Shown here: positions 2,627 to 58,248 of the stretch, one piece after another
Layout: every line of letters begins with the position of its first letter
How positions within the stretch are numbered: the first letter of the stretch is position 1
Source: a phage
Reading direction: 5' to 3' (one strand)
Length of the DNA: 64,000 nucleotides
Sequence record: PX104380.1
Position numbers and translations under genes: made by a program
Notes under the pieces: model-generated
The model's input: the letters and a program-made list of their open reading frames with translations, nothing else
The model's database searches: none
Told to the model about the DNA's origin: nothing

Positions 2627-2913
2627 TAAAACCTCATCTGAAAACCATGCGATTTAACATTACCGCCATTAATATCAGAACTATTAATTTCACGTGCAAT
2701 TGAGGGATCAATGTCAATTTCGCCATTAAGTTTAACGATAGCTAAAGTATCGCGCCCATTTACAGTACGGAACTCTAAAGGGCAGACTACATTAACGTAG
2801 TTTTTAATCGATTCACTGGTAGGTTGCAAATGAGCAGGAAGGTCTTTAGGCGCCTTAGAGAAAACCACTTCACAGAAATTTTTGCGGGTATCAAAATAAG
2901 TAGTCATAAACAT
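2626..2913 (-). CDS. hypothetical protein, ~95 aa (track ORF extends to 2964 through an intergenic hairpin)
   Basis: Internal ATG at 2913 preceded by GAGG; upstream extension would translate the GGGGCUUCGGCCCC hairpin. Confidence 0.45.
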   Translation of the reverse strand: MFMTTYFDTRKNFCEVVFSKAPKDLPAHLQPTSESIKNYVNVVCPLEFRTVNGRDTLAIVKLNGEIDIDPSIAREINSSDINGGNVKSHGFQMRF

Positions 2914-2930
2914 AATATTTTCCTCAGTAA

Positions 2931-2955
2931 GGGGCCGAAGCCCCTGTTTTATTTT
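2931..2955. other. intercistronic UUCG-tetraloop hairpin
   Basis: ggggccgaagcccc (minus sense GGGGCUUCGGCCCC); T-run follows on plus strand only. Confidence 0.4.
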
Positions 2956-3319
2956 AAATATCAAATTCGTTAAGAACTACATCAAAGATTGCTTCAAGAT
3001 GCTCAGGTTTAGCTCTATTACTCAGAATATGACGAATCCAAGTTTTAACAAGAAGCTTGCGATTAACGCCATTCCAGCAAGGATGAGCCCCTAAATCACG
3101 TTGACGAAAATCATCATCTAATGCGATTTTAAAAGAAGAACCTTCTTTCGTGATTGAAACTGTAATACCGTTTTCAAATCGCATATACACATAGTTAGGA
3201 GTCATATACTGTTCAATTTCGCATACTGATCCATTTTGATGTTTCCAAAGGCAAATAGTATCAATAGAACCTGCAATACCATTAGAAACATATTTACGTT
3301 CAAAGTTGATGTAGTTCAT
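2954..3319 (-). CDS. hypothetical protein, 121 aa
   Basis: ORF track; early-type promoter immediately upstream. Confidence 0.5.
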   Translation of the reverse strand: MNYINFERKYVSNGIAGSIDTICLWKHQNGSVCEIEQYMTPNYVYMRFENGITVSITKEGSSFKIALDDDFRQRDLGAHPCWNGVNRKLLVKTWIRHILSNRAKPEHLEAIFDVVLNEFDI

Positions 3320-3354
3320 TTTTGTTCTCCGAGATGTTTAATTGCGGTACAGGT

Positions 3355-3385
3355 ATATAATATCATATCCTGTACCAAAGTAAAC
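3355..3385 (-). promoter_or_regulatory. early-type sigma70 promoter (GTTTAC -35 / ~18 nt / TATA-rich -10)
   Basis: Minus sense GTTTAC-N17/18-TATTAT/ATATAT upstream of ORF 2954-3319. Confidence 0.5.
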
Positions 3386-3387
3386 AA

Positions 3388-3720
3388 TTATTTTACTACT
3401 TTCCAGTGCTGCATGTCAAGTTTACCGACTTTTTTCATCTTCTCAATTAAGCGTTCGGCACGTTGGCGAGCTGTAACATAATACCATTCACCTAATTCAT
3501 TTTGTTCAATTTTTCCAACGATTACTGTATTCAATTCATAAATCCAACCAGTAAAGAAATTATGAACTTGAATTGTAAAGGTGAAATCTGTTCCCATACC
3601 TTCTGTTGTTTCTACTTCAATAATATCACCTTCAACTGCCATTAAGAACCACATAGTTTCATCATATTTACCATTGAAGCATTTAGTTTTAACTGCAGCG
3701 TTCAGATTAATCGTTTTCAT
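3388..3720 (-). CDS. hypothetical protein, 110 aa
   Basis: ORF track; preceded by terminator plus early-type promoter. Confidence 0.5.
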   Translation of the reverse strand: MKTINLNAAVKTKCFNGKYDETMWFLMAVEGDIIEVETTEGMGTDFTFTIQVHNFFTGWIYELNTVIVGKIEQNELGEWYYVTARQRAERLIEKMKKVGKLDMQHWKVVK

Positions 3721-3742
3721 TTTATTCTCCTTTGTTTGTGTA

Positions 3743-3777
3743 AGATAATACTATCACAAAGGAACCATACTGTAAAC
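3743..3777 (-). promoter_or_regulatory. early-type promoter
   Basis: GTTTAC...TAGTAT just downstream of terminator 3797-3825, upstream of ORF 3388-3720. Confidence 0.5.
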
Positions 3778-3796
3778 AACTTTGTGCAATCTTTGG

Positions 3797-3825
3797 AAAA
3801 TAAAAAAGGACTCCCGAAGGAGTCC
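3797..3825 (-). terminator. rho-independent terminator (UUCG-tetraloop hairpin + U-run)
   Basis: Minus sense GGACUCC-UUCG-GGAGUCC followed by UUUUUUAUUUU. Confidence 0.65.
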
Positions 3826-3830
3826 TTAAC

Positions 3831-4007
3831 TTATGCTTTCTGCTTACCAAAACGAGAAGCATCATCTCGAAGAACCGCACGTGCTCGGCGCATGATCTTC
3901 TCAACAGTTTGATTGATACGAGAGTTCGACCCACGCTTGTAGCCAGCGCGTTTAGAATCACCAACTTTCTTTTCAACTGCTTTCTTTGCTTTAGCTTGTT
4001 TTGCCAT
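3831..4007 (-). CDS. small lysine/arginine-rich basic protein, 58 aa
   Basis: ATG at 4007 with AAAAGAG upstream; MAKQAKAKKAVEKK...; track ORF has N-terminal extension. Confidence 0.45.
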   Translation of the reverse strand: MAKQAKAKKAVEKKVGDSKRAGYKRGSNSRINQTVEKIMRRARAVLRDDASRFGKQKA

Positions 4008-7277: not shown

Positions 7278-8664
<1,387 letters not shown>

Positions 8665-8668
<4 letters not shown>

Positions 8669-10099: not shown

Positions 10100-11687
<1,588 letters not shown>

Positions 11688-11694
11688 AATAAAA

Positions 11695-11714
11695 TGGGCC
11701 TTGCGGCCCACTCC
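11695..11714 (-). promoter_or_regulatory. hairpin between Shine-Dalgarno and start codon of denA
   Basis: Minus sense UAA-GGAG-UGGGCC-GCAA-GGCCCA-UUUUAUU-AUG: GNRA-loop hairpin separating GGAG from AUG. Confidence 0.45.
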
Positions 11715-12893
11715 TTAAAAATATTTTTTAAAACTCATCATAACTTTATCATCAACATCATTATCAATCTGTGCAACAAGATAAGATGACAGTTCTACTT
11801 CTTGCGGCGCGGATTGAACATTATCAGAATTAAGGTATTCACGAATCCAAGGATATGGATGTTTAACCGGAGCATCGGTAATTGGACATGGAAGACCGCA
11901 CTGTTTCATACGAGATACAGTTAAGTAATCAATAAAGCTCCACATGCTATTTGTATTTAATCCAGGAACATCGCCATCTTTAAATAAATGAACTGCCCAA
12001 TCTTTTTCTTGGCGGTTAACTTCCATGAAAATATCAACTGCTTCTTGTTCACACTCTTGAGCAATTTTAACCCATTCATCACCATCAGTGCCAAGCTGAA
12101 GTTGACGAATAATATATTGAGTGCCTTTAAGGTGAAGTTGTTCATCACGTGCAATGAACTTCATAATCTTGGCATTACCTTCCATGATTTCCATGTTCTT
12201 ATGGAAGTTAAAGGTACATGCGAAAGATACATAAAAACGAATAGCTTCAAGGGCATTAATAACATGCAGACACAGATAAAGCGACTTCATTAGCTCACGC
12301 TTCCAATATGTCTCATGCTCAATAGCATCTTCAATAACGTCTTCGTCTGCATTAATTTCTTTTTGGTATTCGATATCAGCTTTAGCGTTTTCCCAATAAC
12401 GAGTTTTAATCAGAACGTCATCATAATAACGTCCAATGGATTCAGCGCGTTTCATAATAGCTTCATCTAATACAATCTCATCAAATACCTTTGACGGATC
12501 AGTATAAAGATTTCGCATAATATGAGTGTATGAACGACTGTGAATAGTTTCACTAAAAGTCCATGTAGCAACCCATGTATCAAGACTTGGGTCTGAAATT
12601 AATGACATAAGTACAGCAGATGGCGCACGACCCTGAATGCTATCCAAAAGTGATTGATACTTCAGGTTGTTAGTAAAAATATTTTGCTGGTACTGAGGAA
12701 GCTTATTAAACTGTGCAGCATCCATCATTAAGTTTACTTCTTCAGGACGCCAAAAAAATGATAAAGATTTCTCAATAAGTTCTTCAAATACTCTATGTCG
12801 TTGAATATCATATCGAGCTAAACCCAATCCAGAACCAAAAAACATCGGCTCAGTCAAAATATTAACAGGGGATGTATTAAAAACTGTACTCAT
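11715..12893 (-). CDS. nrdB: ribonucleotide reductase small subunit, 392 aa, uninterrupted
   Basis: Full-length contiguous ORF with RNR R2-like features; position between denA and mobE. Confidence 0.9.
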   Translation of the reverse strand: MSTVFNTSPVNILTEPMFFGSGLGLARYDIQRHRVFEELIEKSLSFFWRPEEVNLMMDAAQFNKLPQYQQNIFTNNLKYQSLLDSIQGRAPSAVLMSLISDPSLDTWVATWTFSETIHSRSYTHIMRNLYTDPSKVFDEIVLDEAIMKRAESIGRYYDDVLIKTRYWENAKADIEYQKEINADEDVIEDAIEHETYWKRELMKSLYLCLHVINALEAIRFYVSFACTFNFHKNMEIMEGNAKIMKFIARDEQLHLKGTQYIIRQLQLGTDGDEWVKIAQECEQEAVDIFMEVNRQEKDWAVHLFKDGDVPGLNTNSMWSFIDYLTVSRMKQCGLPCPITDAPVKHPYPWIREYLNSDNVQSAPQEVELSSYLVAQIDNDVDDKVMMSFKKYF

Positions 12894-13531
12894 TTAGAAT
12901 CCTTAAATTTACATTTATCATAATGCCATCTTAAAGCATTGCCTTTATTAACTTTCTTGCCACAATGCGGACAAGGCGGATACTCTGTACCTTGCTTAGT
13001 TCTCAAAGAAATCAAATCACGGGTTTCTTTAGTATGAGGAACATCTCTTGTCGGAGAAATTGTACCATACATCGGATTAAGCACGCCGACTTTAGCAGCA
13101 GCTATATTCTTTTTAGCTTCTTCGGTTTTAGGTTTTCTCATGCGAGCTAAATGCTCTTTGGTAAATTTCCTTCCTTTAAGAGCTCTACTTATCTTTTCTC
13201 TGGTTTCCATAGAAACTTCACGTCCTATAGCAGCTTCAGATAAACGTCGTCTACCTAATTCGTACAGTTGAGAAGAAATTTTATATGAGCGATTTTTACC
13301 AGTCAAGCACATTAAACCAAAAGCTTTCTTTAATCCTGGGGTGTCATATATTTTACATAAAAGCCAATGAGCTATAAAATGCTCTCTACCTGTTAATTCA
13401 ACTAAATTTTCTTTATCATCAGAACCTCCCATGCATTTAGGGACTATATGATGTGTCTCTTTATATTCGGATAAAGGTTCCCGAGCCTGAGCTCGGGAAA
13501 TTAGGTCATTATAGATTTTTTGATAATTCAT
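12890..13531 (-). CDS. mobE: HNH homing-endonuclease-like protein, 213 aa, between nrdA and nrdB
   Basis: HNH motif ETHHIVPKCMGGSDDKENLVELTGREHFIAHWLL; position matches recalled T4 mobE. Confidence 0.7.
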   Translation of the reverse strand: MNYQKIYNDLISRAQAREPLSEYKETHHIVPKCMGGSDDKENLVELTGREHFIAHWLLCKIYDTPGLKKAFGLMCLTGKNRSYKISSQLYELGRRRLSEAAIGREVSMETREKISRALKGRKFTKEHLARMRKPKTEEAKKNIAAAKVGVLNPMYGTISPTRDVPHTKETRDLISLRTKQGTEYPPCPHCGKKVNKGNALRWHYDKCKFKDSK

Positions 13532-15795
13532 TACAATTTACACGCTGCACAATCGTCGGCTTTAGGAGTTTCTATTTCATAATCATCAGTACCAGAACCA
13601 TCACGGGTATTATGATAATAGAAATTTTTAATGCCATAATACCATCCGTATAACATGTCATCAATCATTATTGACATTGGAACCTTTCCTTTTGGAAAAA
13701 TCTGCGGGTCATAGTATGTATTCGCCGAAGCTGATTGACAAACCCATTTCAGCATAATAGCTACCTGCGTAAGATAAGGTTTATTACCTTTCTTAGCTAA
13801 TTTCCATGTATAATCATAGAGGTCTATGTTATGCTCAATATTGGGCACGACTTGATTAAAGGAGCCCTCTTTTGATTCTTTAACAGAGACTGGTCCACGT
13901 GGAGGCTCGATACCGTTTGTACTGTTAGAAACTTGGGAAGATGACTCACATGGCATAAGTGCTGATAATGTGCTATTACGGATGCCAAAGAGCTTAAGGT
14001 CTTCCCGCAGCGACGACCAGTCACAAACGTATTTTGGAGCTGCGATTTGGTCAATCTTTTTATTGTACCAGTCGATAGGTAATTCGCCTCGAGACCAACG
14101 AGTGTCTGAATAATATTCGCAAGGTCCTTTTTCTTTGGCGAGTTTAATGGATGCTTTAATGAGTCCATACTGTAATCTCTCAAATAGTTCATGTGTTAAA
14201 TCGTTAGCATCTTCATAAGAAGCAAAGTTACTTGCCAGCCAAGCTGCATAGTTAGTAACACCTACACCGAGGTTACGACGCTTTTTAGCTTTTTCTGCTT
14301 CAGGAACTGGATATCCTTGGTAATCCAAAAGATTATCAAGAGCACGAACTTGAACTTCTGCCAATTCATTAATTTTATCTTGGTCTTGCCAATCGAAGTT
14401 ATCCAGCACAAATGCAGATAACGTGCACAATCCAATTTCAGCATCGGGGCTATTCACATCATTTGTTGGAATAGCAATTTCACAGCACAAGTTACTCTGA
14501 CGAATAGGTGCCTTTTCACGAATAAACGGAGTATAGTTATTCGTATTATCAATGAACTGTACATAAATCCTTGCTGTTCCTGAGCGTTCAGTCATGAGCA
14601 ATTCAAATAGTTCACGAGCTTTAATACGCTTTTTACGAATATTAGGGTCTTTTTCTGCTGCTTCGTATAATTCACGGAAACGGTCTTGGTCTTTAAAATA
14701 AGAATAATAAAGCTCTCCACCCATTTCATGCGGACTGAACAAAGTAATGTAGTCGTTCTTTCCAAAACGTTCCATCATTAGGTCATTCAGCTGGACGCCA
14801 TAATCCATATGACGGATACGGTTTTCTTCTACACCTTTGTTATTTTTCAAAACGAGAAGATTTTCAACTTCCAAATGCCAAATAGGATAATAAGCAGTAG
14901 CAGCGCCGCCACGAATTCCACCCTGTGAGCATGATTTAACAGCAGTCTGAAAATGTTTCCAAAAAGGAATAACACCAGTATGACGCACTTCACCCATGCC
15001 AATCTTAGAACCTTCGGCACGAATCATACCAACGTTAATACCAATTCCAGCACGTTTGGAGATATATTCAACAATTGAAGCGGAAGCCTTATTGATAGAC
15101 TTTAATGAATCACCTGCCTCAATAACAACACATGAACTAAACTGCCGAGTCGGAGTACGGCAACCAGCCATAATAGGAGTTGGTAATGAAATCTGTCGAG
15201 TAGATACTGCTTCATAAAAACGAATAACATGTTTTAATCTATCAACAGGTTCATCTTGATGCAATGCCATTCCAATAGTCATAAATGCAAACTGAGGAGT
15301 TTCATAAATTTGACCAGTGGTTTTATCTTTAACTAAATATTTTTCTTTTAATTGCATCGCCCCGGAATAAGTAAATTCCATATCCCGCTCGTGCTTAATT
15401 TTTGATTCTAAAAATGTAATTTCTTCTGCTGAATATTTTGACAATAATTCAGGGTCATATTTACCTTCATTTACACAGTAAGAAATATGGTCAATAAATG
15501 AACGCGGTTCATACTGCCCATAAACATGCTTACGAAGAGCGAACATTAGACAACGTGCAGCTACATATTGATAATCAGGCTCTTCAACCGAAATAGAATT
15601 CGCAGCGGCCTTAATGACAATAGTCTGAATATCATCAGTTGTCATTCCATCACGGAGATAAGATTTAATATTTTCATATAATTCATAAGGATCTACTGAT
15701 GTTCCCTCAGCTGCCCAAGATAAAACTTTAATAATTTTTTGTGGGTCAAAGCTCTGAGAAACACCACTACTTTTGATAACATTAATTAATTGCAT
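13531..15795 (-). CDS. nrdA: ribonucleotide reductase large subunit, 754 aa
   Basis: 754 aa with N-terminal ATP-cone and class I RNR catalytic region; ATG verified. Confidence 0.95.
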   Translation of the reverse strand: MQLINVIKSSGVSQSFDPQKIIKVLSWAAEGTSVDPYELYENIKSYLRDGMTTDDIQTIVIKAAANSISVEEPDYQYVAARCLMFALRKHVYGQYEPRSFIDHISYCVNEGKYDPELLSKYSAEEITFLESKIKHERDMEFTYSGAMQLKEKYLVKDKTTGQIYETPQFAFMTIGMALHQDEPVDRLKHVIRFYEAVSTRQISLPTPIMAGCRTPTRQFSSCVVIEAGDSLKSINKASASIVEYISKRAGIGINVGMIRAEGSKIGMGEVRHTGVIPFWKHFQTAVKSCSQGGIRGGAATAYYPIWHLEVENLLVLKNNKGVEENRIRHMDYGVQLNDLMMERFGKNDYITLFSPHEMGGELYYSYFKDQDRFRELYEAAEKDPNIRKKRIKARELFELLMTERSGTARIYVQFIDNTNNYTPFIREKAPIRQSNLCCEIAIPTNDVNSPDAEIGLCTLSAFVLDNFDWQDQDKINELAEVQVRALDNLLDYQGYPVPEAEKAKKRRNLGVGVTNYAAWLASNFASYEDANDLTHELFERLQYGLIKASIKLAKEKGPCEYYSDTRWSRGELPIDWYNKKIDQIAAPKYVCDWSSLREDLKLFGIRNSTLSALMPCESSSQVSNSTNGIEPPRGPVSVKESKEGSFNQVVPNIEHNIDLYDYTWKLAKKGNKPYLTQVAIMLKWVCQSASANTYYDPQIFPKGKVPMSIMIDDMLYGWYYGIKNFYYHNTRDGSGTDDYEIETPKADDCAACKL

Positions 15796-16112
15796 AAGTC
15801 CTCAACTTGAAAATCGTCTTTAAACAATCGGTTAACTATATGAGCTATTATATCACCATGACACGGCTTTGGTTTACATGTGCATCCTAGCCTCATTCCA
15901 CGTAAAGGCTCTAAATGTGCTTTAGTTATTTCTCCGGATTTAATTCGACGTATAAAATCTTTTTTGAATAATTCAATGGCAGCCTCCCGGCTGCCAGCAT
16001 CTTTACCGACGTAATTTCCCCAAAATGTACCACGGTGAATATTAACATCAAAGTCGGATTTGTATTTATTCACTACCCGACATAGACGGCCCGCGCGGTG
16101 ATAATTCGGCAT
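15786..16112 (-). CDS. hypothetical Cys/His-containing protein, 108 aa (position of T4 nrdA.1)
   Basis: ORF track; [11 protein letters not shown] motif; ATG verified. Confidence 0.5.
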
Positions 16113-16329
16113 ATTGTTTTTCCGTTAAAACAGTAATATCGTAGTAACAGTCAGAAGAAGTTTTAACTGTGGAAATTTTATTATCAAAATACTCACGAGT
16201 CATTTTATGAGTATAATATTTTTTGCCATAAATGATAATAGGCTGATTTGGTCCTGGAACTTCCAGTTCACTTGGATTGGGAAGTTCAAAAAGAACAACA
16301 CCAGAAGTATCTTTAAATCGTAAAATCAT
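16066..16329 (-). CDS. hypothetical protein, ~87 aa (position of T4 nrdA.2)
   Basis: Track start 16341 is TTG; ATG at 16329 preceded by GAGGA; 3' end overlaps next gene by ~47 nt. Confidence 0.4.
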
Positions 16330-16352
16330 ATATCCTCGCAATTAAATTAAAA

Positions 16353-17213
16353 TTATACTGCCATTTTTCCTTTAATTGGCGGGTGAGATACATAGTCGTT
16401 AAGAACAAAATTATGCGGCTTTGCGAATTGACTCAACCAAAATACCTGCGATTCTGTATCCCATTCATCAAATTCATCTGGAAATTTTAATTGTAATTCG
16501 CATAAATCCATAGGTTCACGACGCAAAATTTCTTTACATTGTTCTACGTGATTCATATAGATATGAGTATTACCACCAGAAAATATCAAATCTCCCGGAA
16601 TAAGATTACACATCTTAGCTACAATATGAACTAACGTAGCATATGATGCAATATTAAATGGAAGACCGAGGAAAACATCTACCGAACGTTGATACCACTG
16701 AAGGTCAAGGTATCCATTACGAACATTAAATTGATAGAACATATGACAAGGTGGTAATGCCATCTGCTTGAGTTCAGCTGGATTCCATGCTGAAACAATT
16801 TGACGCCTATCATTTGGCAGTTTTTTAATACGATCAATAACTTCTATAATTTGGTCTACACCACCAAAATCACGCCACTGTTTTCCATAAATTGGACCAA
16901 GTTCACCGCTATGGTATCCTAAATCTTTTGCTTGATTTTCGTAATTTTCATCCCAAACTGTTTTGCCTTGGATTAACGAATCATGTTGAATTAATCGCAA
17001 ATCATTGACATTTGTGCTTCCCGATAAAAACCATATTAACTCAGCAATGCAAGCTTTCCAGGCGAGCTTTTTAGTTGTTACTGCAGGAAAACCTTTAGTT
17101 AAATCCCAGCGTAATTTAGTACCGAACAAAGCAATTGTTCCTGTGCCTGTTCGGTCATCGGTTTCATAACCATTTTCAAAAATGTCTTTAATTAAATCTT
17201 GGTATTGTTTCAT
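16353..17213 (-). CDS. td: thymidylate synthase, 286 aa, uninterrupted
   Basis: Contiguous 286-aa ORF with ThyA features (catalytic Cys region PPCHMFYQF). Confidence 0.95.
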   Translation of the reverse strand: MKQYQDLIKDIFENGYETDDRTGTGTIALFGTKLRWDLTKGFPAVTTKKLAWKACIAELIWFLSGSTNVNDLRLIQHDSLIQGKTVWDENYENQAKDLGYHSGELGPIYGKQWRDFGGVDQIIEVIDRIKKLPNDRRQIVSAWNPAELKQMALPPCHMFYQFNVRNGYLDLQWYQRSVDVFLGLPFNIASYATLVHIVAKMCNLIPGDLIFSGGNTHIYMNHVEQCKEILRREPMDLCELQLKFPDEFDEWDTESQVFWLSQFAKPHNFVLNDYVSHPPIKGKMAV

Positions 17214-17228
17214 TTAACACCTATATAA

Positions 17229-17576
17229 TCAATACGGTTTAGCATCAAATTTTCTCTCAATTTCAGGCGTGAAATATAATTCTTTACCGCGTTTGGAAAA
17301 GCGACCAATAATATGATAATTATTCTCATCAAACGTGATATTACCAATATCCATAGCTTTCAACCAAATATCGATATTTCTATCCAGCTTTATGTCAAAA
17401 TTCCAATACGGAGAACTATTACCGAAAATACTGCAAGCGGATTCAGTGAAACAACTGCTATAAATCTTATCTTTAGGAACTACTAATTGATAGACACCTT
17501 TAATAAACTGAGGACCCTGCCACTTTGGCTGTTTCTCGTCTTTTTCTAATAGAATAGGGTAATAATTAAAATTCAT
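17229..17576 (-). CDS. hypothetical protein, 115 aa, between frd and td
   Basis: ORF track; ATG verified; no recognised motif. Confidence 0.5.
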   Translation of the reverse strand: MNFNYYPILLEKDEKQPKWQGPQFIKGVYQLVVPKDKIYSSCFTESACSIFGNSSPYWNFDIKLDRNIDIWLKAMDIGNITFDENNYHIIGRFSKRGKELYFTPEIERKFDAKPY

Positions 17577-17595
17577 ATTTCCGCCACGCGTTATT

Positions 17596-18422
<827 letters not shown>

Positions 18423-18433
18423 ATTATCTCCTA

Positions 18434-18766
18434 TTAAAAAGGATCAGGAACATATCCGCTAGCTTTAATCATTTTAATTAACGTTAACATTCCTTTGTTA
18501 ACTGCTCGTGAGATTTCATCAAAAACTTCATCACTAAAAAGTTCTAACACGCCCTTCTGAACTTTTAATTTACAGCCAACAATTTCTTCATCGCCTATAG
18601 TAAATTCATTACCACCAATTCCACCGAAAAACTTAATTACACCAGTTAACTGTCTTCCACGAGAATATGGGTCGTGTGATAAAGTAATATGAGTCACCCC
18701 GAGTACAGTTTTAAATTGGCAGCGAATATTTACTTGTGAAATTCCAGTTACATGAATGTCAGACAT
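18434..18766 (-). CDS. hypothetical protein, 110 aa
   Basis: ORF track; ATG verified. Confidence 0.5.
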   Translation of the reverse strand: MSDIHVTGISQVNIRCQFKTVLGVTHITLSHDPYSRGRQLTGVIKFFGGIGGNEFTIGDEEIVGCKLKVQKGVLELFSDEVFDEISRAVNKGMLTLIKMIKASGYVPDPF

Positions 18767-20824: not shown

Positions 20825-21454
20825 TCATAGCTGGCATAATTTGCAATACTCTGGGTCTTCGAGAGGTATCCAACCTGAGTTGAAATACTTTACCATCGAT
20901 TTAGCAGTTGTATCAGTTATATTTATATTACCTTTAACTCTTCGCCATCCAGGAGTTTTACCGTACAGATTAGAAGATAATAACACATAATTCTCGTAAG
21001 CAATATGAGATAATTTCCAAGACTCTATATTAGCTCGTGATGTTTTCCAAGGTCTAAAATCGTCACGGTTCATATAATTAGCCAATCTCATATGCTCTCT
21101 AACTTCCGGGTCTTTGGCTGGATGAGTTTCACCACTCACACCAAATCCGCCGCCAGCATATACCAGATTAAAATAGTCTGGATTATCTCTGGCATTTACT
21201 TCAAGTTGGTATTTTCGTTCTGCTTCAATAACATCCAAGCCATCATCAATTTGAATTATTTTAACGCTCGGTTTTTGAAGCATTACCGCATTCAAAAATC
21301 TTTTTTGTTTACATGAACTCCAATATTCCTTTCCGGAAGAGTCATATATTATTCCGTTCTCAAATGAGCAATTTAATTTACTACCGATATAGTAGTATGG
21401 CGGAGTCTTATTTTTGACACGGTCTTCAAATGTAAACCAATATACTATATTCAT
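20825..21454 (-). CDS. GIY-YIG homing-endonuclease-like protein (Seg-like), 209 aa, between genes 32 and 59
   Basis: N-terminal IVYWFTF...YYYIGSK...ERKYQLEVNARDNPDYFN resembles GIY-YIG catalytic core; occupies the recalled T4 segG position. Confidence 0.5.
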   Translation of the reverse strand: MNIVYWFTFEDRVKNKTPPYYYIGSKLNCSFENGIIYDSSGKEYWSSCKQKRFLNAVMLQKPSVKIIQIDDGLDVIEAERKYQLEVNARDNPDYFNLVYAGGGFGVSGETHPAKDPEVREHMRLANYMNRDDFRPWKTSRANIESWKLSHIAYENYVLLSSNLYGKTPGWRRVKGNINITDTTAKSMVKYFNSGWIPLEDPEYCKLCQL

Positions 21455-38725: not shown

Positions 38726-38876
38726 TAGTAGATAACAACACAAATGTTAAATATGCACACATACCCTGAGCTAAAGCTTGCGAAAACACACTGCTGGCAT
38801 CAATACAGATAGTTAAAACACATGCTACTATCCAACAAATAAATGAAATAACTCCTAATAATTTTGCAATATTCAT
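38718..38876 (-). CDS. small hydrophobic Cys-rich membrane protein, 52 aa
   Basis: MNIAKLLGVISFICWIVACVLTICIDASS...; below track cutoff. Confidence 0.35.
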   Translation of the reverse strand: MNIAKLLGVISFICWIVACVLTICIDASSVFSQALAQGMCAYLTFVLLSTND

Positions 38877-38883
38877 ATTTTCC

Positions 38884-38997
38884 TCACATAAATCCAAAGT
38901 AAACGTTTAATACATCAATCATTAAAACGATTGGGAATATACTCAAAACTACTAGTATTATAACTACATTCCATATAGCTTTAACAATCTTTTTCAT
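38884..38997 (-). CDS. small membrane protein, 37 aa
   Basis: ATG at 38997 after GGAGGAACAG; MKKIVKAIWNVVIILVVLSIFPIVLMIDVLNVYFGFM; track extension covers promoter. Confidence 0.4.
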   Translation of the reverse strand: MKKIVKAIWNVVIILVVLSIFPIVLMIDVLNVYFGFM

Positions 38998-43795: not shown

Positions 43796-43825
43796 ATTAT
43801 ACCACATCCTTGTGGTAAAGTAAAC
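43796..43825 (-). promoter_or_regulatory. early-type promoter
   Basis: GTTTAC-N18-TATAAT upstream of ORF 43567-43770. Confidence 0.55.
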
Positions 43826-45642
43826 TACTGGCTCATCCATTCTTTACGAAGGTCAGCATTATCTCCCATGAGCATTTCAAAAAGCTCATTCCAGTTCTCA
43901 GGAAGTTTAACAACATCATATACCGGATTTTGAATCATCTCACGATATTCAGATTTTTCCAAAGAGCCAAGTCCCTTAATATAACGGATGCTATGTTTAG
44001 GTAGAGCATCTTTAGCACTCTCATATTCAGCGACTGTATAAAACCATTCTTGTTTTTTACCGACCTGAGCGATGATTACAGGAGTTTTGACAAAGCGAAT
44101 TCTTCCTTGTTCAAACAGTTCTGGCCAATTACTAAAAAATCCGAGCAGAGAAGGATAAATGCTTCCTAGACCATCATGGTCAGCATCGGTCATAATAGCA
44201 ATATTATGATAATTCAAGTTTTCAGCTTTTTCACCAAGAACTAATCCAGTGATTGCGCAAATATCAAACAGTTCTTTGTTTTTAAGCATATCAGCATATG
44301 ACATACCCCAACTGTTGAGAACTTTACCGCGCAATGGATAGCCACCATGAAGTTCTTTATCACGAACATCGATTAAATAACCAATTGCAGAATCACCCTC
44401 AGTCAAGAAAAGAGTAGTGTCAGCATCTTTACCACAAAGATTCGCTTTGATATGTTTATGAACCTTAGCTTTAGAAGCCTTTTTAGCTGCTTTAGTTTCT
44501 GCTGCTTTTTCTGCCGCCAATTTACGAGCCAAGGCAGCTTCAATAATCGGCATTAAAATTGCTTCATTATTTAGAATAGCGCGTGAAATCTTTTTAGCAT
44601 CAAGTTGAATATGACTACGAATTTCGCCAAATGGAGAAGTCAAACGCTCTTTAGTTTGAGAATCAAATCGCATGTTTTTCATATCACGGACAAACATAAC
44701 GATAGTCAAACATTCTTTAACGCGTGCTTTAGTCACATCAATTTTGAACTTACGTTTGATTTGTGGAATAAGGTCTTCACAAATATCATCCATAACACAG
44801 TCAATGTGATGGCCACCATTCTTAGTGTGAATGTTATTCACATAAGTTAATTGACGAAAACCATCCGGTGAACGACCAACCGCAATAGAGCAATTTTCTT
44901 GTTCTTGAACGATAGCATGCTCATCATATTGGCGTGCATATTTCTTAAAATTGCCCTGAACCTTTTTACCATTAAAGGTAAATTGAATATCAGGATAAAC
45001 TACTGCAAGTGTCTGGAGACGATCTAGTGTAATGTCAAGATAAACTTGGGACAGCTCATTAGTTTCAAATGACATAAAATCAGGAATGAAAGTAACACGA
45101 GTTCCTTTCCATTTTCCAGGAATAGTTTCCCATGATTTATTTTCCATGCCATTTGAACAACGAACTACAATATTATTTTGACCATCACCAGTTTCACCGA
45201 CAAACATCACAGAAAAAATGTTTGTCAAACTAGAACCAACACCATTCATACCGCCAGTGACGCGTTCTTTATCATCACCGAAGTTACCACCTGCTTTTGG
45301 AATAGTCCAGGCAGCAACAGGACCAGGAATTTCTTCACCGGTAGGTGTTTTGACCATCGCTTGTGGAATACCGCGACCGTTATCTTCAACTGTTACCTGA
45401 TTATTTTTAATGGTAACATTAATTTTATTCGCGAATTTAAACTTAGTACGAATACCTTCATCTACTGAGTTATCGATAATTTCATCAATAAGCTTAACAA
45501 GACCAGGTACATACTGAACACTTTCCCATTTACCAAACAGAAAGCGCTCATGCATTTCATTAGCAGAAGAGCCAATATACATGCCGCTACGCTTTTTGAT
45601 ATGTTCAATATCGCTCAGAATTTTAATTTCATTCTTAATCAT
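43825..45642 (-). CDS. 39: DNA topoisomerase II large subunit gp39 (GyrB-like), contiguous 605 aa
   Basis: GHKL ATPase N-terminus (IDEIIDNSVDE, GRGIP), TOPRIM region; single uninterrupted ORF. Confidence 0.9.
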   Translation of the reverse strand: MIKNEIKILSDIEHIKKRSGMYIGSSANEMHERFLFGKWESVQYVPGLVKLIDEIIDNSVDEGIRTKFKFANKINVTIKNNQVTVEDNGRGIPQAMVKTPTGEEIPGPVAAWTIPKAGGNFGDDKERVTGGMNGVGSSLTNIFSVMFVGETGDGQNNIVVRCSNGMENKSWETIPGKWKGTRVTFIPDFMSFETNELSQVYLDITLDRLQTLAVVYPDIQFTFNGKKVQGNFKKYARQYDEHAIVQEQENCSIAVGRSPDGFRQLTYVNNIHTKNGGHHIDCVMDDICEDLIPQIKRKFKIDVTKARVKECLTIVMFVRDMKNMRFDSQTKERLTSPFGEIRSHIQLDAKKISRAILNNEAILMPIIEAALARKLAAEKAAETKAAKKASKAKVHKHIKANLCGKDADTTLFLTEGDSAIGYLIDVRDKELHGGYPLRGKVLNSWGMSYADMLKNKELFDICAITGLVLGEKAENLNYHNIAIMTDADHDGLGSIYPSLLGFFSNWPELFEQGRIRFVKTPVIIAQVGKKQEWFYTVAEYESAKDALPKHSIRYIKGLGSLEKSEYREMIQNPVYDVVKLPENWNELFEMLMGDNADLRKEWMSQ

Positions 45643-56827: not shown

Positions 56828-56835
56828 TATTTATA
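56828..56835 (-). promoter_or_regulatory. late promoter (TATAAATA) for soc
   Basis: Minus-sense TATAAATA ~30 nt upstream of soc ATG, overlapping the 3' end of the HNH ORF. Confidence 0.65.
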
Positions 56836-57667
56836 ATCCATTTTCAAATCTCTTTATCATGTTTATATAATTTTCGTCAGGATAACCTAGGCTAACTGCT
56901 AGTTTTCTAAAATTGACATATTTAGGTTTGTTGTTATTAATCCATAATTCTCTAAGCTCTTTTTCATAATTCCATTTAAGTTGATTTCTGCGTGCAGTTT
57001 TGCTTAAAGTTTTTCCTTTAGCTTTTAAAGCTTTTTCAGATGACTGTTTTAATTTTTGAATATTTAAAACTTCTTCTATAGATAAATTATTTTCCTTTGA
57101 ATATCTTATGCAAAAATCTTTTACTGCGGCTATTAGGCAATTTTTGTGAGTACCTAAAATTTCTGGGTTATTTTCTTCAACTAAAATTCCCCAATATCTT
57201 CGGTAGCGAGGCATATCTCTTGAAATCCAGTCATTATACCAAAAATCAAAGTTGGAATACATGAAAGATTTTCTTTTACGAAGAGTATCTTGGTTTATCC
57301 ATTGCTCACGTTTATCAGCCCATAACTTAATAGTAAAGTCTTTTTCTGAGTCAGAAAGCTTCTTAAATTGCGAGCTATTTACTGAGGTCATTCTCTGGAA
57401 TGCATTCAGCAATCCAAATCTTCCAGTTGAACATAAGAGATAGTGAACATATATGTGTTGATATATTGGGAGATATACTCTATTCCAAGGATGTATTTTA
57501 AAATCACTATACTCAGGAAATGCGCATTTAGGAAGTATATGATGGGCTTCTGTTTTAGATTTGATGTGAGTGTTTAACTTATATTTATCTATAATTTTTA
57601 AGTACTCATCTAAAAGTTCCCATTGCGGGAACTTTTCTTTAAGAGCAGATTTGAAATTAATATCCAT
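56831..57667 (-). CDS. HNH homing-endonuclease-like protein, ~278 aa, between soc and gene 56
   Basis: HNH motif EAHHILPKCAFPEYSDFKIHPWNRVYLPIYQHIYVHYLL, similar to the mobE ORF; track start 57682 is TTG, ATG at 57667. Confidence 0.6.
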   Translation of the reverse strand: MDINFKSALKEKFPQWELLDEYLKIIDKYKLNTHIKSKTEAHHILPKCAFPEYSDFKIHPWNRVYLPIYQHIYVHYLLCSTGRFGLLNAFQRMTSVNSSQFKKLSDSEKDFTIKLWADKREQWINQDTLRKRKSFMYSNFDFWYNDWISRDMPRYRRYWGILVEENNPEILGTHKNCLIAAVKDFCIRYSKENNLSIEEVLNIQKLKQSSEKALKAKGKTLSKTARRNQLKWNYEKELRELWINNNKPKYVNFRKLAVSLGYPDENYINMIKRFENGL

Positions 57668-58175
57668 TATCTTGACGTTCAAAATTATGCTTGTTCTTCA
57701 GATAATAAAGTTTAAAGATTTCTTCAGCAGTAAGGCCGAGACCTTGGAACATGTTCAGAACGAAATGAAGAATATCAATCATTTCGAATTTAATTTCCAA
57801 CTGGTCTTGTGGAGACAAATCAGTAATCAGAGTTTCACGACGTTCACCATGCTGCGACTTCCAAGGCTTCCATACAGCAGATGCATCTTTTTCACCATTG
57901 CTCATACCACCAAGAGAAGTCAGAAGTTCACGGAATTCATCATCAATGTAATCTTTCTGATTACGCAGCCAATCGACAACTTCACCTGCAGTAGCCAAAT
58001 CATCAGGATGACGGTTATATTCAGGTTTATCTTTAGCTAAACGAACCTGCAGAGATTTCTGCATATCAAGCATAACTTGCAGTGGGTCTTTTTCATCACC
58101 GAGAATATCCCAGTATTCATTTTGAGCTTTATCAGCACCAGCGATCAGATGACTACATTCGTTGAAATGTGGCAT
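57657..58175 (-). CDS. 56: dCTP pyrophosphatase (dCTPase/dUTPase) gp56, 172 aa
   Basis: 172 aa MazG-like; position upstream of soc. Confidence 0.85.
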   Translation of the reverse strand: MPHFNECSHLIAGADKAQNEYWDILGDEKDPLQVMLDMQKSLQVRLAKDKPEYNRHPDDLATAGEVVDWLRNQKDYIDDEFRELLTSLGGMSNGEKDASAVWKPWKSQHGERRETLITDLSPQDQLEIKFEMIDILHFVLNMFQGLGLTAEEIFKLYYLKNKHNFERQDNGY

Positions 58176-58248
58176 GTTATTTTTCCTTTCAATTCATGGG
58201 TTAGTAGATTAATTATACAATAAATATATAAAGCAATAAGGAGGACAT

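Follow-up and report, generated by a model that had tools for sequence, protein, structure and literature searches.

Gene content of the segment

The DNA analyzed was a 64-kb stretch of phage record PX104380.1 (hereafter, the window), and the segment followed up (positions 11715-17213, minus strand) holds the genes for ribonucleotide reductase (nrdA and nrdB), thymidylate synthase (td) and a free-standing HNH homing endonuclease (mobE). The segment is an ordinary T4-like stretch in which td and nrdB are without the self-splicing introns of T4 and an intact mobE lies between nrdA and nrdB. Judged by sequence, the source is a Tequatrovirus (T4-like coliphage) and the segment belongs to its nucleotide-metabolism gene cluster. 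The gene order on the minus strand is pseT, rnlA, denA, nrdB, mobE, nrdA, nrdA.1, nrdA.2, td, an open reading frame (ORF) of 115 amino acids (aa), frd and gene 32. The genes from denA to td were placed as follows.

11277-11711, minus strand: denA
11715-12893, minus strand: nrdB, class Ia ribonucleotide reductase beta subunit, 392 aa, single ORF (Pfam, alignment)
12890-13531, minus strand: mobE, free-standing HNH homing endonuclease, 213 aa, T6-type allele (Pfam, T6 match)
13531-15795, minus strand: nrdA, class Ia ribonucleotide reductase alpha subunit, 754 aa (Pfam)
15786-16112, minus strand: nrdA.1, DUF4326 (Pfam, T4 annotation)
16066-16341, minus strand: nrdA.2, DUF5496 (Pfam, T4 annotation)
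16353-17213, minus strand: td, thymidylate synthase, 286 aa, single ORF (Pfam)

NrdA was matched by the Pfam families ATP-cone, Ribonuc_red_lgN and Ribonuc_red_lgC (E=3e-137). By megablast, ~500 phage records covered at least 80% of window positions 11000-17700 at 90-97% identity, with G2540 and T6 as top matches and no identical record. Many Tequatrovirus genomes were 94-97% identical in nucleotides (nt) to the segment, and another 25 kb of the window reached at most 97% identity to any record.

Absence of the td and nrdB introns

In the T4 record (NC_000866), td and nrdB are annotated as two-piece joined coding sequences with I-TevI and a defective I-TevIII inside, in agreement with an earlier reading of the same DNA (the sequence-only reading) that had named group I introns in both T4 genes. 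By BLAST and alignment, the window was colinear with T4 here save for two clean absences, T4 nt 143547-144563 (td intron, 1017 nt) and T4 nt 138458-139057 (nrdB intron, 598 nt). T4 td was spliced with the 1017-nt intron length of NC_000866.4 for exon alignment. Exons were joined directly at both T4-type intron sites (td nt 549/550 and nrdB nt 664/665 in T4 numbering), which lie between window positions 16665/16664 for td (td gene nt 549/550) and 12218/12217 for nrdB (window nrdB gene nt 676/677). With a slash at the insertion point, the td junction reads ...TTCCTCGGT / CTTCCATTT... and the nrdB junction reads ...TCTTTCGCAT / GTACCTTTAAC....

Td matched Pfam Thymidylat_synt (PF00303; E=5.7e-95) over residues 2-286 and profile positions 1-266 of 266, and NrdB matched Ribonuc_red_sm (PF00268; E=1.8e-36) over profile positions 9-271 of 281. 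Both translations were colinear with the spliced T4 and T6 proteins and with the T2 proteins. The window td was identical to spliced T6 td at 814/861 nt and 281/287 aa, and to spliced T4 td at 749/861 nt and 255/287 aa. Td has 286 aa, the same as in T4. NrdB has 392 aa in the window, T2 and vB_Eco_CP, and 388 aa in T4 and T6; as aligned, this difference is an indel within a variable patch (described below) and not an intron remnant.

At the Rfam gathering threshold no match was obtained in the window, but this setting was uninformative, being equally blind to the real introns of T4 and T6, and it was replaced by a scan at E<=10 with T4 as a positive control. In the control, Intron_gpI (RF00028) detected the T4 td intron at 36.9 bits and the nrdB intron at 35.7 bits (E ~1e-6), while no match was found in window positions 11000-18300. 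Searches of the whole 64-kb window with the two T4 introns (local blastn) returned chance 13-17-mers only, and I-TevI and I-TevIII had no match there at E<=1e-3 (tblastn). The earlier description of both genes as uninterrupted was therefore upheld, with td at the canonical 286 aa and nrdB at 392 aa as in T2, as was the view that mobile-element occupancy differs from that of T4; the proposed alignment to T4 exons placed the empty sites exactly, and the proposed group I intron scan found no core.

An assembly artefact or a cDNA-like origin of the intron-less genes was also considered and was ruled out because many independent genomes have identical junctions.

MobE protein

The HNH ORF noticed between nrdA and nrdB (12890-13531) proved to encode a full-length MobE that is 99% identical (210/213 aa) to that of T6. 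Pfam HNH was matched at E=8.2e-5 (23.1 bits, cut-off 21.4) together with NUMOD3 repeats, and the ORF was assigned to phrog_655, homing endonuclease (E=1.7e-66). Intact HNH residues are present (H27 H28 x13 N42 x8 H51) and are paralleled by the I-TevIII catalytic residues H26/H27/N39/H48 (PMC1865063); a C-terminal zinc-finger-like motif, CPHC...H...C (CxxC...H...C), is also kept. A search of solved structures returned marginal HNH-motif matches only (E at least 0.1) and thus gave no information over and above Pfam.

The comparison with T4 MobE that had been suggested confirmed homology, but the 141-aa T4 reference ORF turned out to be only the first part of the protein. The window protein is 60% identical to this reference over its first 127 residues (E=4e-51), and its last 83 residues are 99% identical to T4 NrdB.1 (83 aa). 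Aligned with full-length RB59/T4 MobE (232 aa), 164 of 232 columns are identical; the two proteins are almost the same over their N-terminal 55 aa and their C-terminal 83 aa, and the centre of the window protein is divergent and 19 aa shorter. In the T4 reference (NC_000866 139716-140416) the gene is divided between two annotated ORFs, mobE with 141 aa and nrdB.1 with 83 aa. A single 699-nt ORF of 232 aa is found instead in RB59, in ECO4 and in a T4 clone that was sequenced anew (OL964735); relative to these, NC_000866 differs only in having one added base at each of alignment columns 351 (an A, within an A-run) and 438 (a C). Because the split depends on these two one-base insertions, which neither RB59 nor resequenced T4 has, nrdB.1 is read from these alignments as the C-terminal part of MobE, and it is probably the DNA-binding part.

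No in vitro reconstitution of MobE endonuclease activity has been achieved, T4 MobE included (PMC2790892). Constructs made from the 141-aa T4 ORF are without the C-terminal part, which might bear on this failure; the two-base split of the T4 reference is worth heeding in construct design, and a full-length T6-type MobE could suit biochemistry better than the T4 reference ORF.

A third C-terminal type of MobE (243 aa) was observed at the same locus in RB5, where the shared part is the first ~165 nt only.

Regulatory features of mobE

13529-13534, minus strand: TAATGA, nrdA stop overlapping the mobE start (sequence)
13478-13499, minus strand: stem-loop inside the mobE 5' end, TTCCCGAGC TCAG GCTCGGGAA, then CCTTTATCC (fold)
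12900-12960, minus strand: mobE 3' end with MotA-box-like AATGCTTTA upstream of the nrdB start (T4 identity)

The UAAUGA overlap is the translational-coupling arrangement described for T4 (PMC2988022). The hairpin has a 9-base-pair (bp) stem and a 4-nt loop, lies ~27 nt downstream of the AUG (z=-3.0 by folding) and is identical over its whole stretch in T4 and T6; in T4 it was mapped as a weak intrinsic terminator (PMC2790892). A generic terminator scanner did not call the hairpin, its T-tract being short, which fits the 'weak terminator' of that report. At the other end of the gene, the last ~75 nt of mobE are identical to T4 and the mobE stop overlaps the nrdB start (ATGA). A middle promoter of T4 nrdB was reported in the mobE 3' region (PMC2790892, PMC2988022), and by analogy the MotA-box-like element here is a putative nrdB promoter. 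All regulatory features described for T4 mobE are thus present, and by the same analogy they would be expected to act in this phage as they do in T4.

I-TevIII and MobE sites in nrdB

12188-12247, minus strand: empty nrdB intron site, including I-TevIII cleavage positions -14/-16 (alignment)
12763-12780, minus strand: MobE nick-site homologue, nrdB nt 114-131, ACTTATTGAGAAATCTTT, codon 42 = AAA (alignment)
12250-12400, minus strand: hypervariable nrdB patch, ~aa 168-205, T2-like allele (alignment, 150-nt bins)

Within +/-30 nt, the empty nrdB site departs from the T4 exon sequence at two positions only (-2 and -5, both synonymous), and because of this it could plausibly, and probably would, be cut by an intact RB3-type I-TevIII. 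The T4 nrdB intron, with its defunct I-TevIII, is mobilised only in trans, by a MobE nick at nrdB nt 122-126 (PMC2790892). MobE nicks nrdB of phages without mobE, and T2, which is without mobE, is nicked by T4 MobE; phages that bear mobE have variant nick-site sequences, with AAA, AAG, CGG or CGA at codon 42 (PMC2790892). Over nrdB nt 114-131 the window is identical to T6, and T2 has TTTAACCGAAAAGCAGTT instead; over the first 150 nt of nrdB the window differs from T2 at 35 positions. Because the nick region has the mobE-linked T6 haplotype, unlike cleavable T2, the window nrdB looks protected, not naive, toward MobE-driven conversion. The proposal that nrdB would be a naive target was accordingly sustained for I-TevIII, whose site is empty and nearly T4-like, but not for MobE.

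Identity in the variable patch falls to 64% against T6, vB_Eco_CP and T4, with >95% on either side. The window nrdB is a mosaic: its 5' end resembles T6, its variable patch resembles T2 and its 3' end is conserved. At least three unrelated indel-bearing alleles of the patch were seen (window/T2 type, vB_Eco_CP type and T4/T6 type).

td homing site

16654-16691, minus strand: empty td intron site, homologue of the 38-bp I-TevI homing site, CAACGTTCGGTAGATGTTTTCCTCGGT / CTTCCATTTAA (alignment)

[quoted passage not shown] In the window td the CAACG cleavage-site pentamer is intact at -27 to -23, and six synonymous differences from T4 are found in the 38 bp (-22, -19, -6, -4, +3 and +6), four of them within +/-10 nt of the insertion point. 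The T2 site also differs from T4 at six positions, five of which are the same as in the window, and T2L td is efficiently converted by T4 I-TevI (ratio 2.1; PMC2790892, Table 2). Since T2 differs equally and mostly at the same positions and yet T2L is converted, the window site is probably cleavable by I-TevI. The window thereby offers a clean example of an intron-less td recipient allele.

Identity of td to the intron-bearing T6 and T4 genes drops to 88-89% in the bin around the insertion site (16600-16749). Neighbouring bins are at roughly 93-97% against T6, and the 3' bins 16300-16599 are lower still against T4 (77%). The homing site is the same as in intron-less vB_Eco_CP.

As a separate observation, the 3' third of td (16300-16600) is itself mosaic, with 77% identity to T4 and T2 and 97% to T6 and vB_Eco_CP.

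Occurrence among relatives

Population counts were made in a phage collection of 50,697 records. The td intron was covered to at least 80% in 197 records and a contiguous empty td junction was found in 198; the nrdB intron was covered to at least 80% in 118 records, many of them T4 stocks, and a contiguous empty nrdB junction was found in at least 512. The window-type mobE (642 nt) was present at full length in 50 records, and any allele sharing the mobE 5' end in 131-143. The combination seen in the window, with both introns absent and mobE present, is annotated in vB_Eco_CP and was recognized by span and coverage in slur02/04/11/13, FL08, FelixPlatter, AdolfPortmann, KAW1E185 and Killian. 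In an even-step sample of ranked matches every combination occurred, the fully empty state (as in T2) being the commonest (~9 of 29 sampled records with at least 80% coverage).

Because the empty td state is as frequent as the td intron, the empty nrdB state is the large majority and the same combination has been published, the state of the window is not special; it is an ordinary and already documented polymorphism among T-even phages. T4 itself, with 15 endonucleases, has been described as the oddity of this group (PMC2988022). Variation in which of the td, nrdB and nrdA/nrdB sites are occupied has long been studied among T-even phages, all combinations are represented among hundreds of sequenced genomes, and the importance of the present case is slight beyond correct annotation.

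Two further phages, HP3 (KY608967, OK275722) and L14 (OQ992558), matched only ~32% of the T4 td intron and had a locus ~320 nt longer than the empty one, which suggests a td intron without the I-TevI ORF.

T6-like tract and proposed mechanism

12550-14350, no strand assigned: T6-like tract comprising the nrdB 5' end, mobE and the nrdA 3' end (150-nt identity bins)

Identity was binned per 150 nt against T6, vB_Eco_CP, T4 and T2. A tract of ~1.8 kb centred on mobE was 97-100% identical to T6 (mostly at least 99%), with flanks at 94-98%. This is the pattern expected from intronless homing, and the tract is a candidate co-conversion tract. Because it fits intronless homing with co-conversion, acquisition or maintenance of mobE by homing appears at least as likely as passive retention. 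The earlier wording 'retained', which implies that mobE was ancestrally present, was not supported, as the gene is mobile, occurs in ~131-143 of ~500-1000 related records and lies inside the T6-like tract.

By analogy with its T4 homologue, the protein would be translated from nrdA transcripts in small amounts only, its expression being limited by TAATGA translational coupling and by attenuation at the hairpin terminator. During mixed infection MobE would nick the nrdB 5' region of phages without mobE, and repair of the nick from the mobE-bearing genome would transfer mobE to the recipient along with adjoining parts of nrdA and nrdB. The variant nick-site haplotype of the phage's own nrdB, travelling with mobE, probably protects it against self-cleavage, and the empty td and nrdB sites could receive introns from suitable donors.

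Several points weigh against this scheme. Expression control, nicking, self-immunity and homing are carried over from T4 for this mobE allele by analogy; the central third of MobE is ~60% identical to T4 and 19 aa shorter, so that target specificity could differ; and ordinary recombination or common descent, in place of endonuclease-driven co-conversion, could account for the near-identity to T6 around mobE. The descriptive part is contradicted by no finding.

Alternative explanations

The account favored here, that of ordinary intron-less td and nrdB alleles beside an intact T6-type mobE in a known combination of mobile elements, is held with high confidence. An intron that is degenerate, very short or otherwise placed could in principle be hidden within the ORFs, but this is already refuted by the alignments and is given practically no weight: neither ORF shows a break or a shortening, both run colinear with the spliced T4 and T6 proteins and those of T2, and the Intron_gpI scan found nothing at a setting that detects both T4 introns. 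It is also very improbable that the HNH ORF is an inactive relic kept only as the carrier of the nrdB promoter. Two points speak for such a relic: in T4 the middle promoter of nrdB is situated within the 3' part of the mobE region, so that deletion is selected against (PMC2790892), and in vitro activity has been demonstrated for no MobE; the full length of the ORF, its intact HH...N...H residues and the ~50 records that keep the same 642-nt ORF speak against it. The ratio of nonsynonymous to synonymous substitution rates (dN/dS) was 0.18, with dS ~1.1 (saturated), against the 213-aa orthologue in LF82-31, a member of another genus (Mosigvirus), and because of this ratio mobE is considered a maintained gene, not a relic.

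The empty sites might alternatively reflect secondary loss, in which introns that an ancestor carried were precisely removed (recombination with an intron-less allele being one possible route), in place of a lineage that was never invaded. The nearest genomes over the 6.7-kb stretch, G2540 and T6, do have the td intron, and td is about half occupied in the population, so that gain and loss must both be frequent. A recent excision from a T6-like allele would, however, leave T6-like flanks. Divergence from T6 and T4 is instead greatest at the td insertion site, the clustered changes are synonymous, and because the divergence from T6 peaks at a homing site that matches intron-less vB_Eco_CP, recent precise excision from a T6-like td is argued against; for nrdB the intron-less state is in any case the large majority. 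Secondary loss is thus regarded as unlikely. Resistance is judged doubtful to a like degree, namely that the td and/or nrdB sites are not naive and that the clustered synonymous changes were selected against I-TevI or I-TevIII cleavage. The six synonymous changes in the 38-bp site, four of them in the 20 bp centred on the insertion site, do stand out from the flanking exon 1 (0-2 changes per 30 nt), but the CAACG pentamer is intact, I-TevI binding is sequence-tolerant (PMC2988022), the T2 record has just as many differences and T2L is converted at a ratio of 2.1 (PMC2790892) and the nrdB site has two changes only. A broader form, in which the td-site substitutions together with the mobE-linked nrdB haplotype are selected immunity alleles that make the phage resistant to conversion by both I-TevI and MobE, is likewise thought improbable. 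In a related reading, the nick-site preference of T6-type MobE could differ from that of T4 MobE, and the two alleles might convert each other's hosts.

Other differences from T4 in the window

Outside the segment, a SegG homologue that is 98% identical to T4 SegG adjoins gene 32 (20825-21454, minus strand). Between soc and gene 56 lies a 283-aa ORF (56831-57682, minus strand) with an HHILPKC motif and a match to phrog_655, homing endonuclease (E=4.5e-33), but no Pfam match; in this slot T4 has the GIY-YIG endonuclease segF, and the window thus has a different endonuclease family. By these matches, MobE, SegG and the Mob-like ORF at the segF locus bring the free-standing homing endonuclease genes of the window to at least three, and there is no intron-encoded one.

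Gene 39 (topoisomerase large subunit) is a single 605-aa ORF (43825-45642, minus strand), without the T4 insertion of mobA and 60.1 and without the gene 60 50-nt translational bypass (T4 2794-3910). The stp-ndd-ndd.1-ndd.3 block (T4 165509-166623) is absent at window ~38872-38887, where the junction shows a 16-nt overlap, and the gene for the Dam methyltransferase (T4 16846-17625) is missing at window ~58218-58237; Stp, Ndd and Dam had no match in the window by tblastn. Several small ORFs were seen in addition. The 115-aa ORF between frd and td (17229-17576, minus strand; phrog_1928) is shared with T6, T2 and vB_Eco_CP; T4 does not have it, and its frd overlaps td directly. A 100-aa ORF adjoining pseT (8366-8668, minus strand; phrog_2364) and two ORFs after frd (18177-18766, minus strand), one of them DUF7247, are absent from T4 at those places.

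Comparison with known systems

T6 (MH550421 / AY262134) has the same gene order, a 213-aa MobE identical at 210 positions, an intron-less nrdB whose 5' 340 nt are identical to the window including the MobE nick-site haplotype, and the 115-aa ORF between frd and td. Unlike the window, T6 has a 1016-nt td intron with I-TevI, and its NrdB (388 aa) carries the T4-type variable patch in place of the T2-type patch of the window (392 aa). The configuration is identical in vB_Eco_CP (OZ034683), slur02/04, FL08, FelixPlatter and KAW1E185, which have the 642-nt mobE and, in vB_Eco_CP, a td homing-site sequence identical to that of the window; this group differs in having only 94-96% nt identity overall and a different allele of the nrdB variable patch.

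T4 (NC_000866) shares the cluster and its order, and the HNH domain, hairpin, TAATGA and C-terminal 83 aa of MobE are common to both. It differs from the window in its td intron with I-TevI and nrdB intron with defunct I-TevIII, in a longer mobE with a divergent centre (232 aa when intact; 141 aa plus nrdB.1 in the reference), in CGG at nrdB codon 42 and in having no 115-aa ORF between frd and td. T2 (AP018813) resembles the window in its intron-less td and nrdB, its 392-aa NrdB with the same patch type and its 115-aa ORF; unlike the window, it is without mobE, has a 51-nt nrdA-nrdB spacer and carries a MobE-cleavable nrdB 5' haplotype with AAG at codon 42 (PMC2790892).

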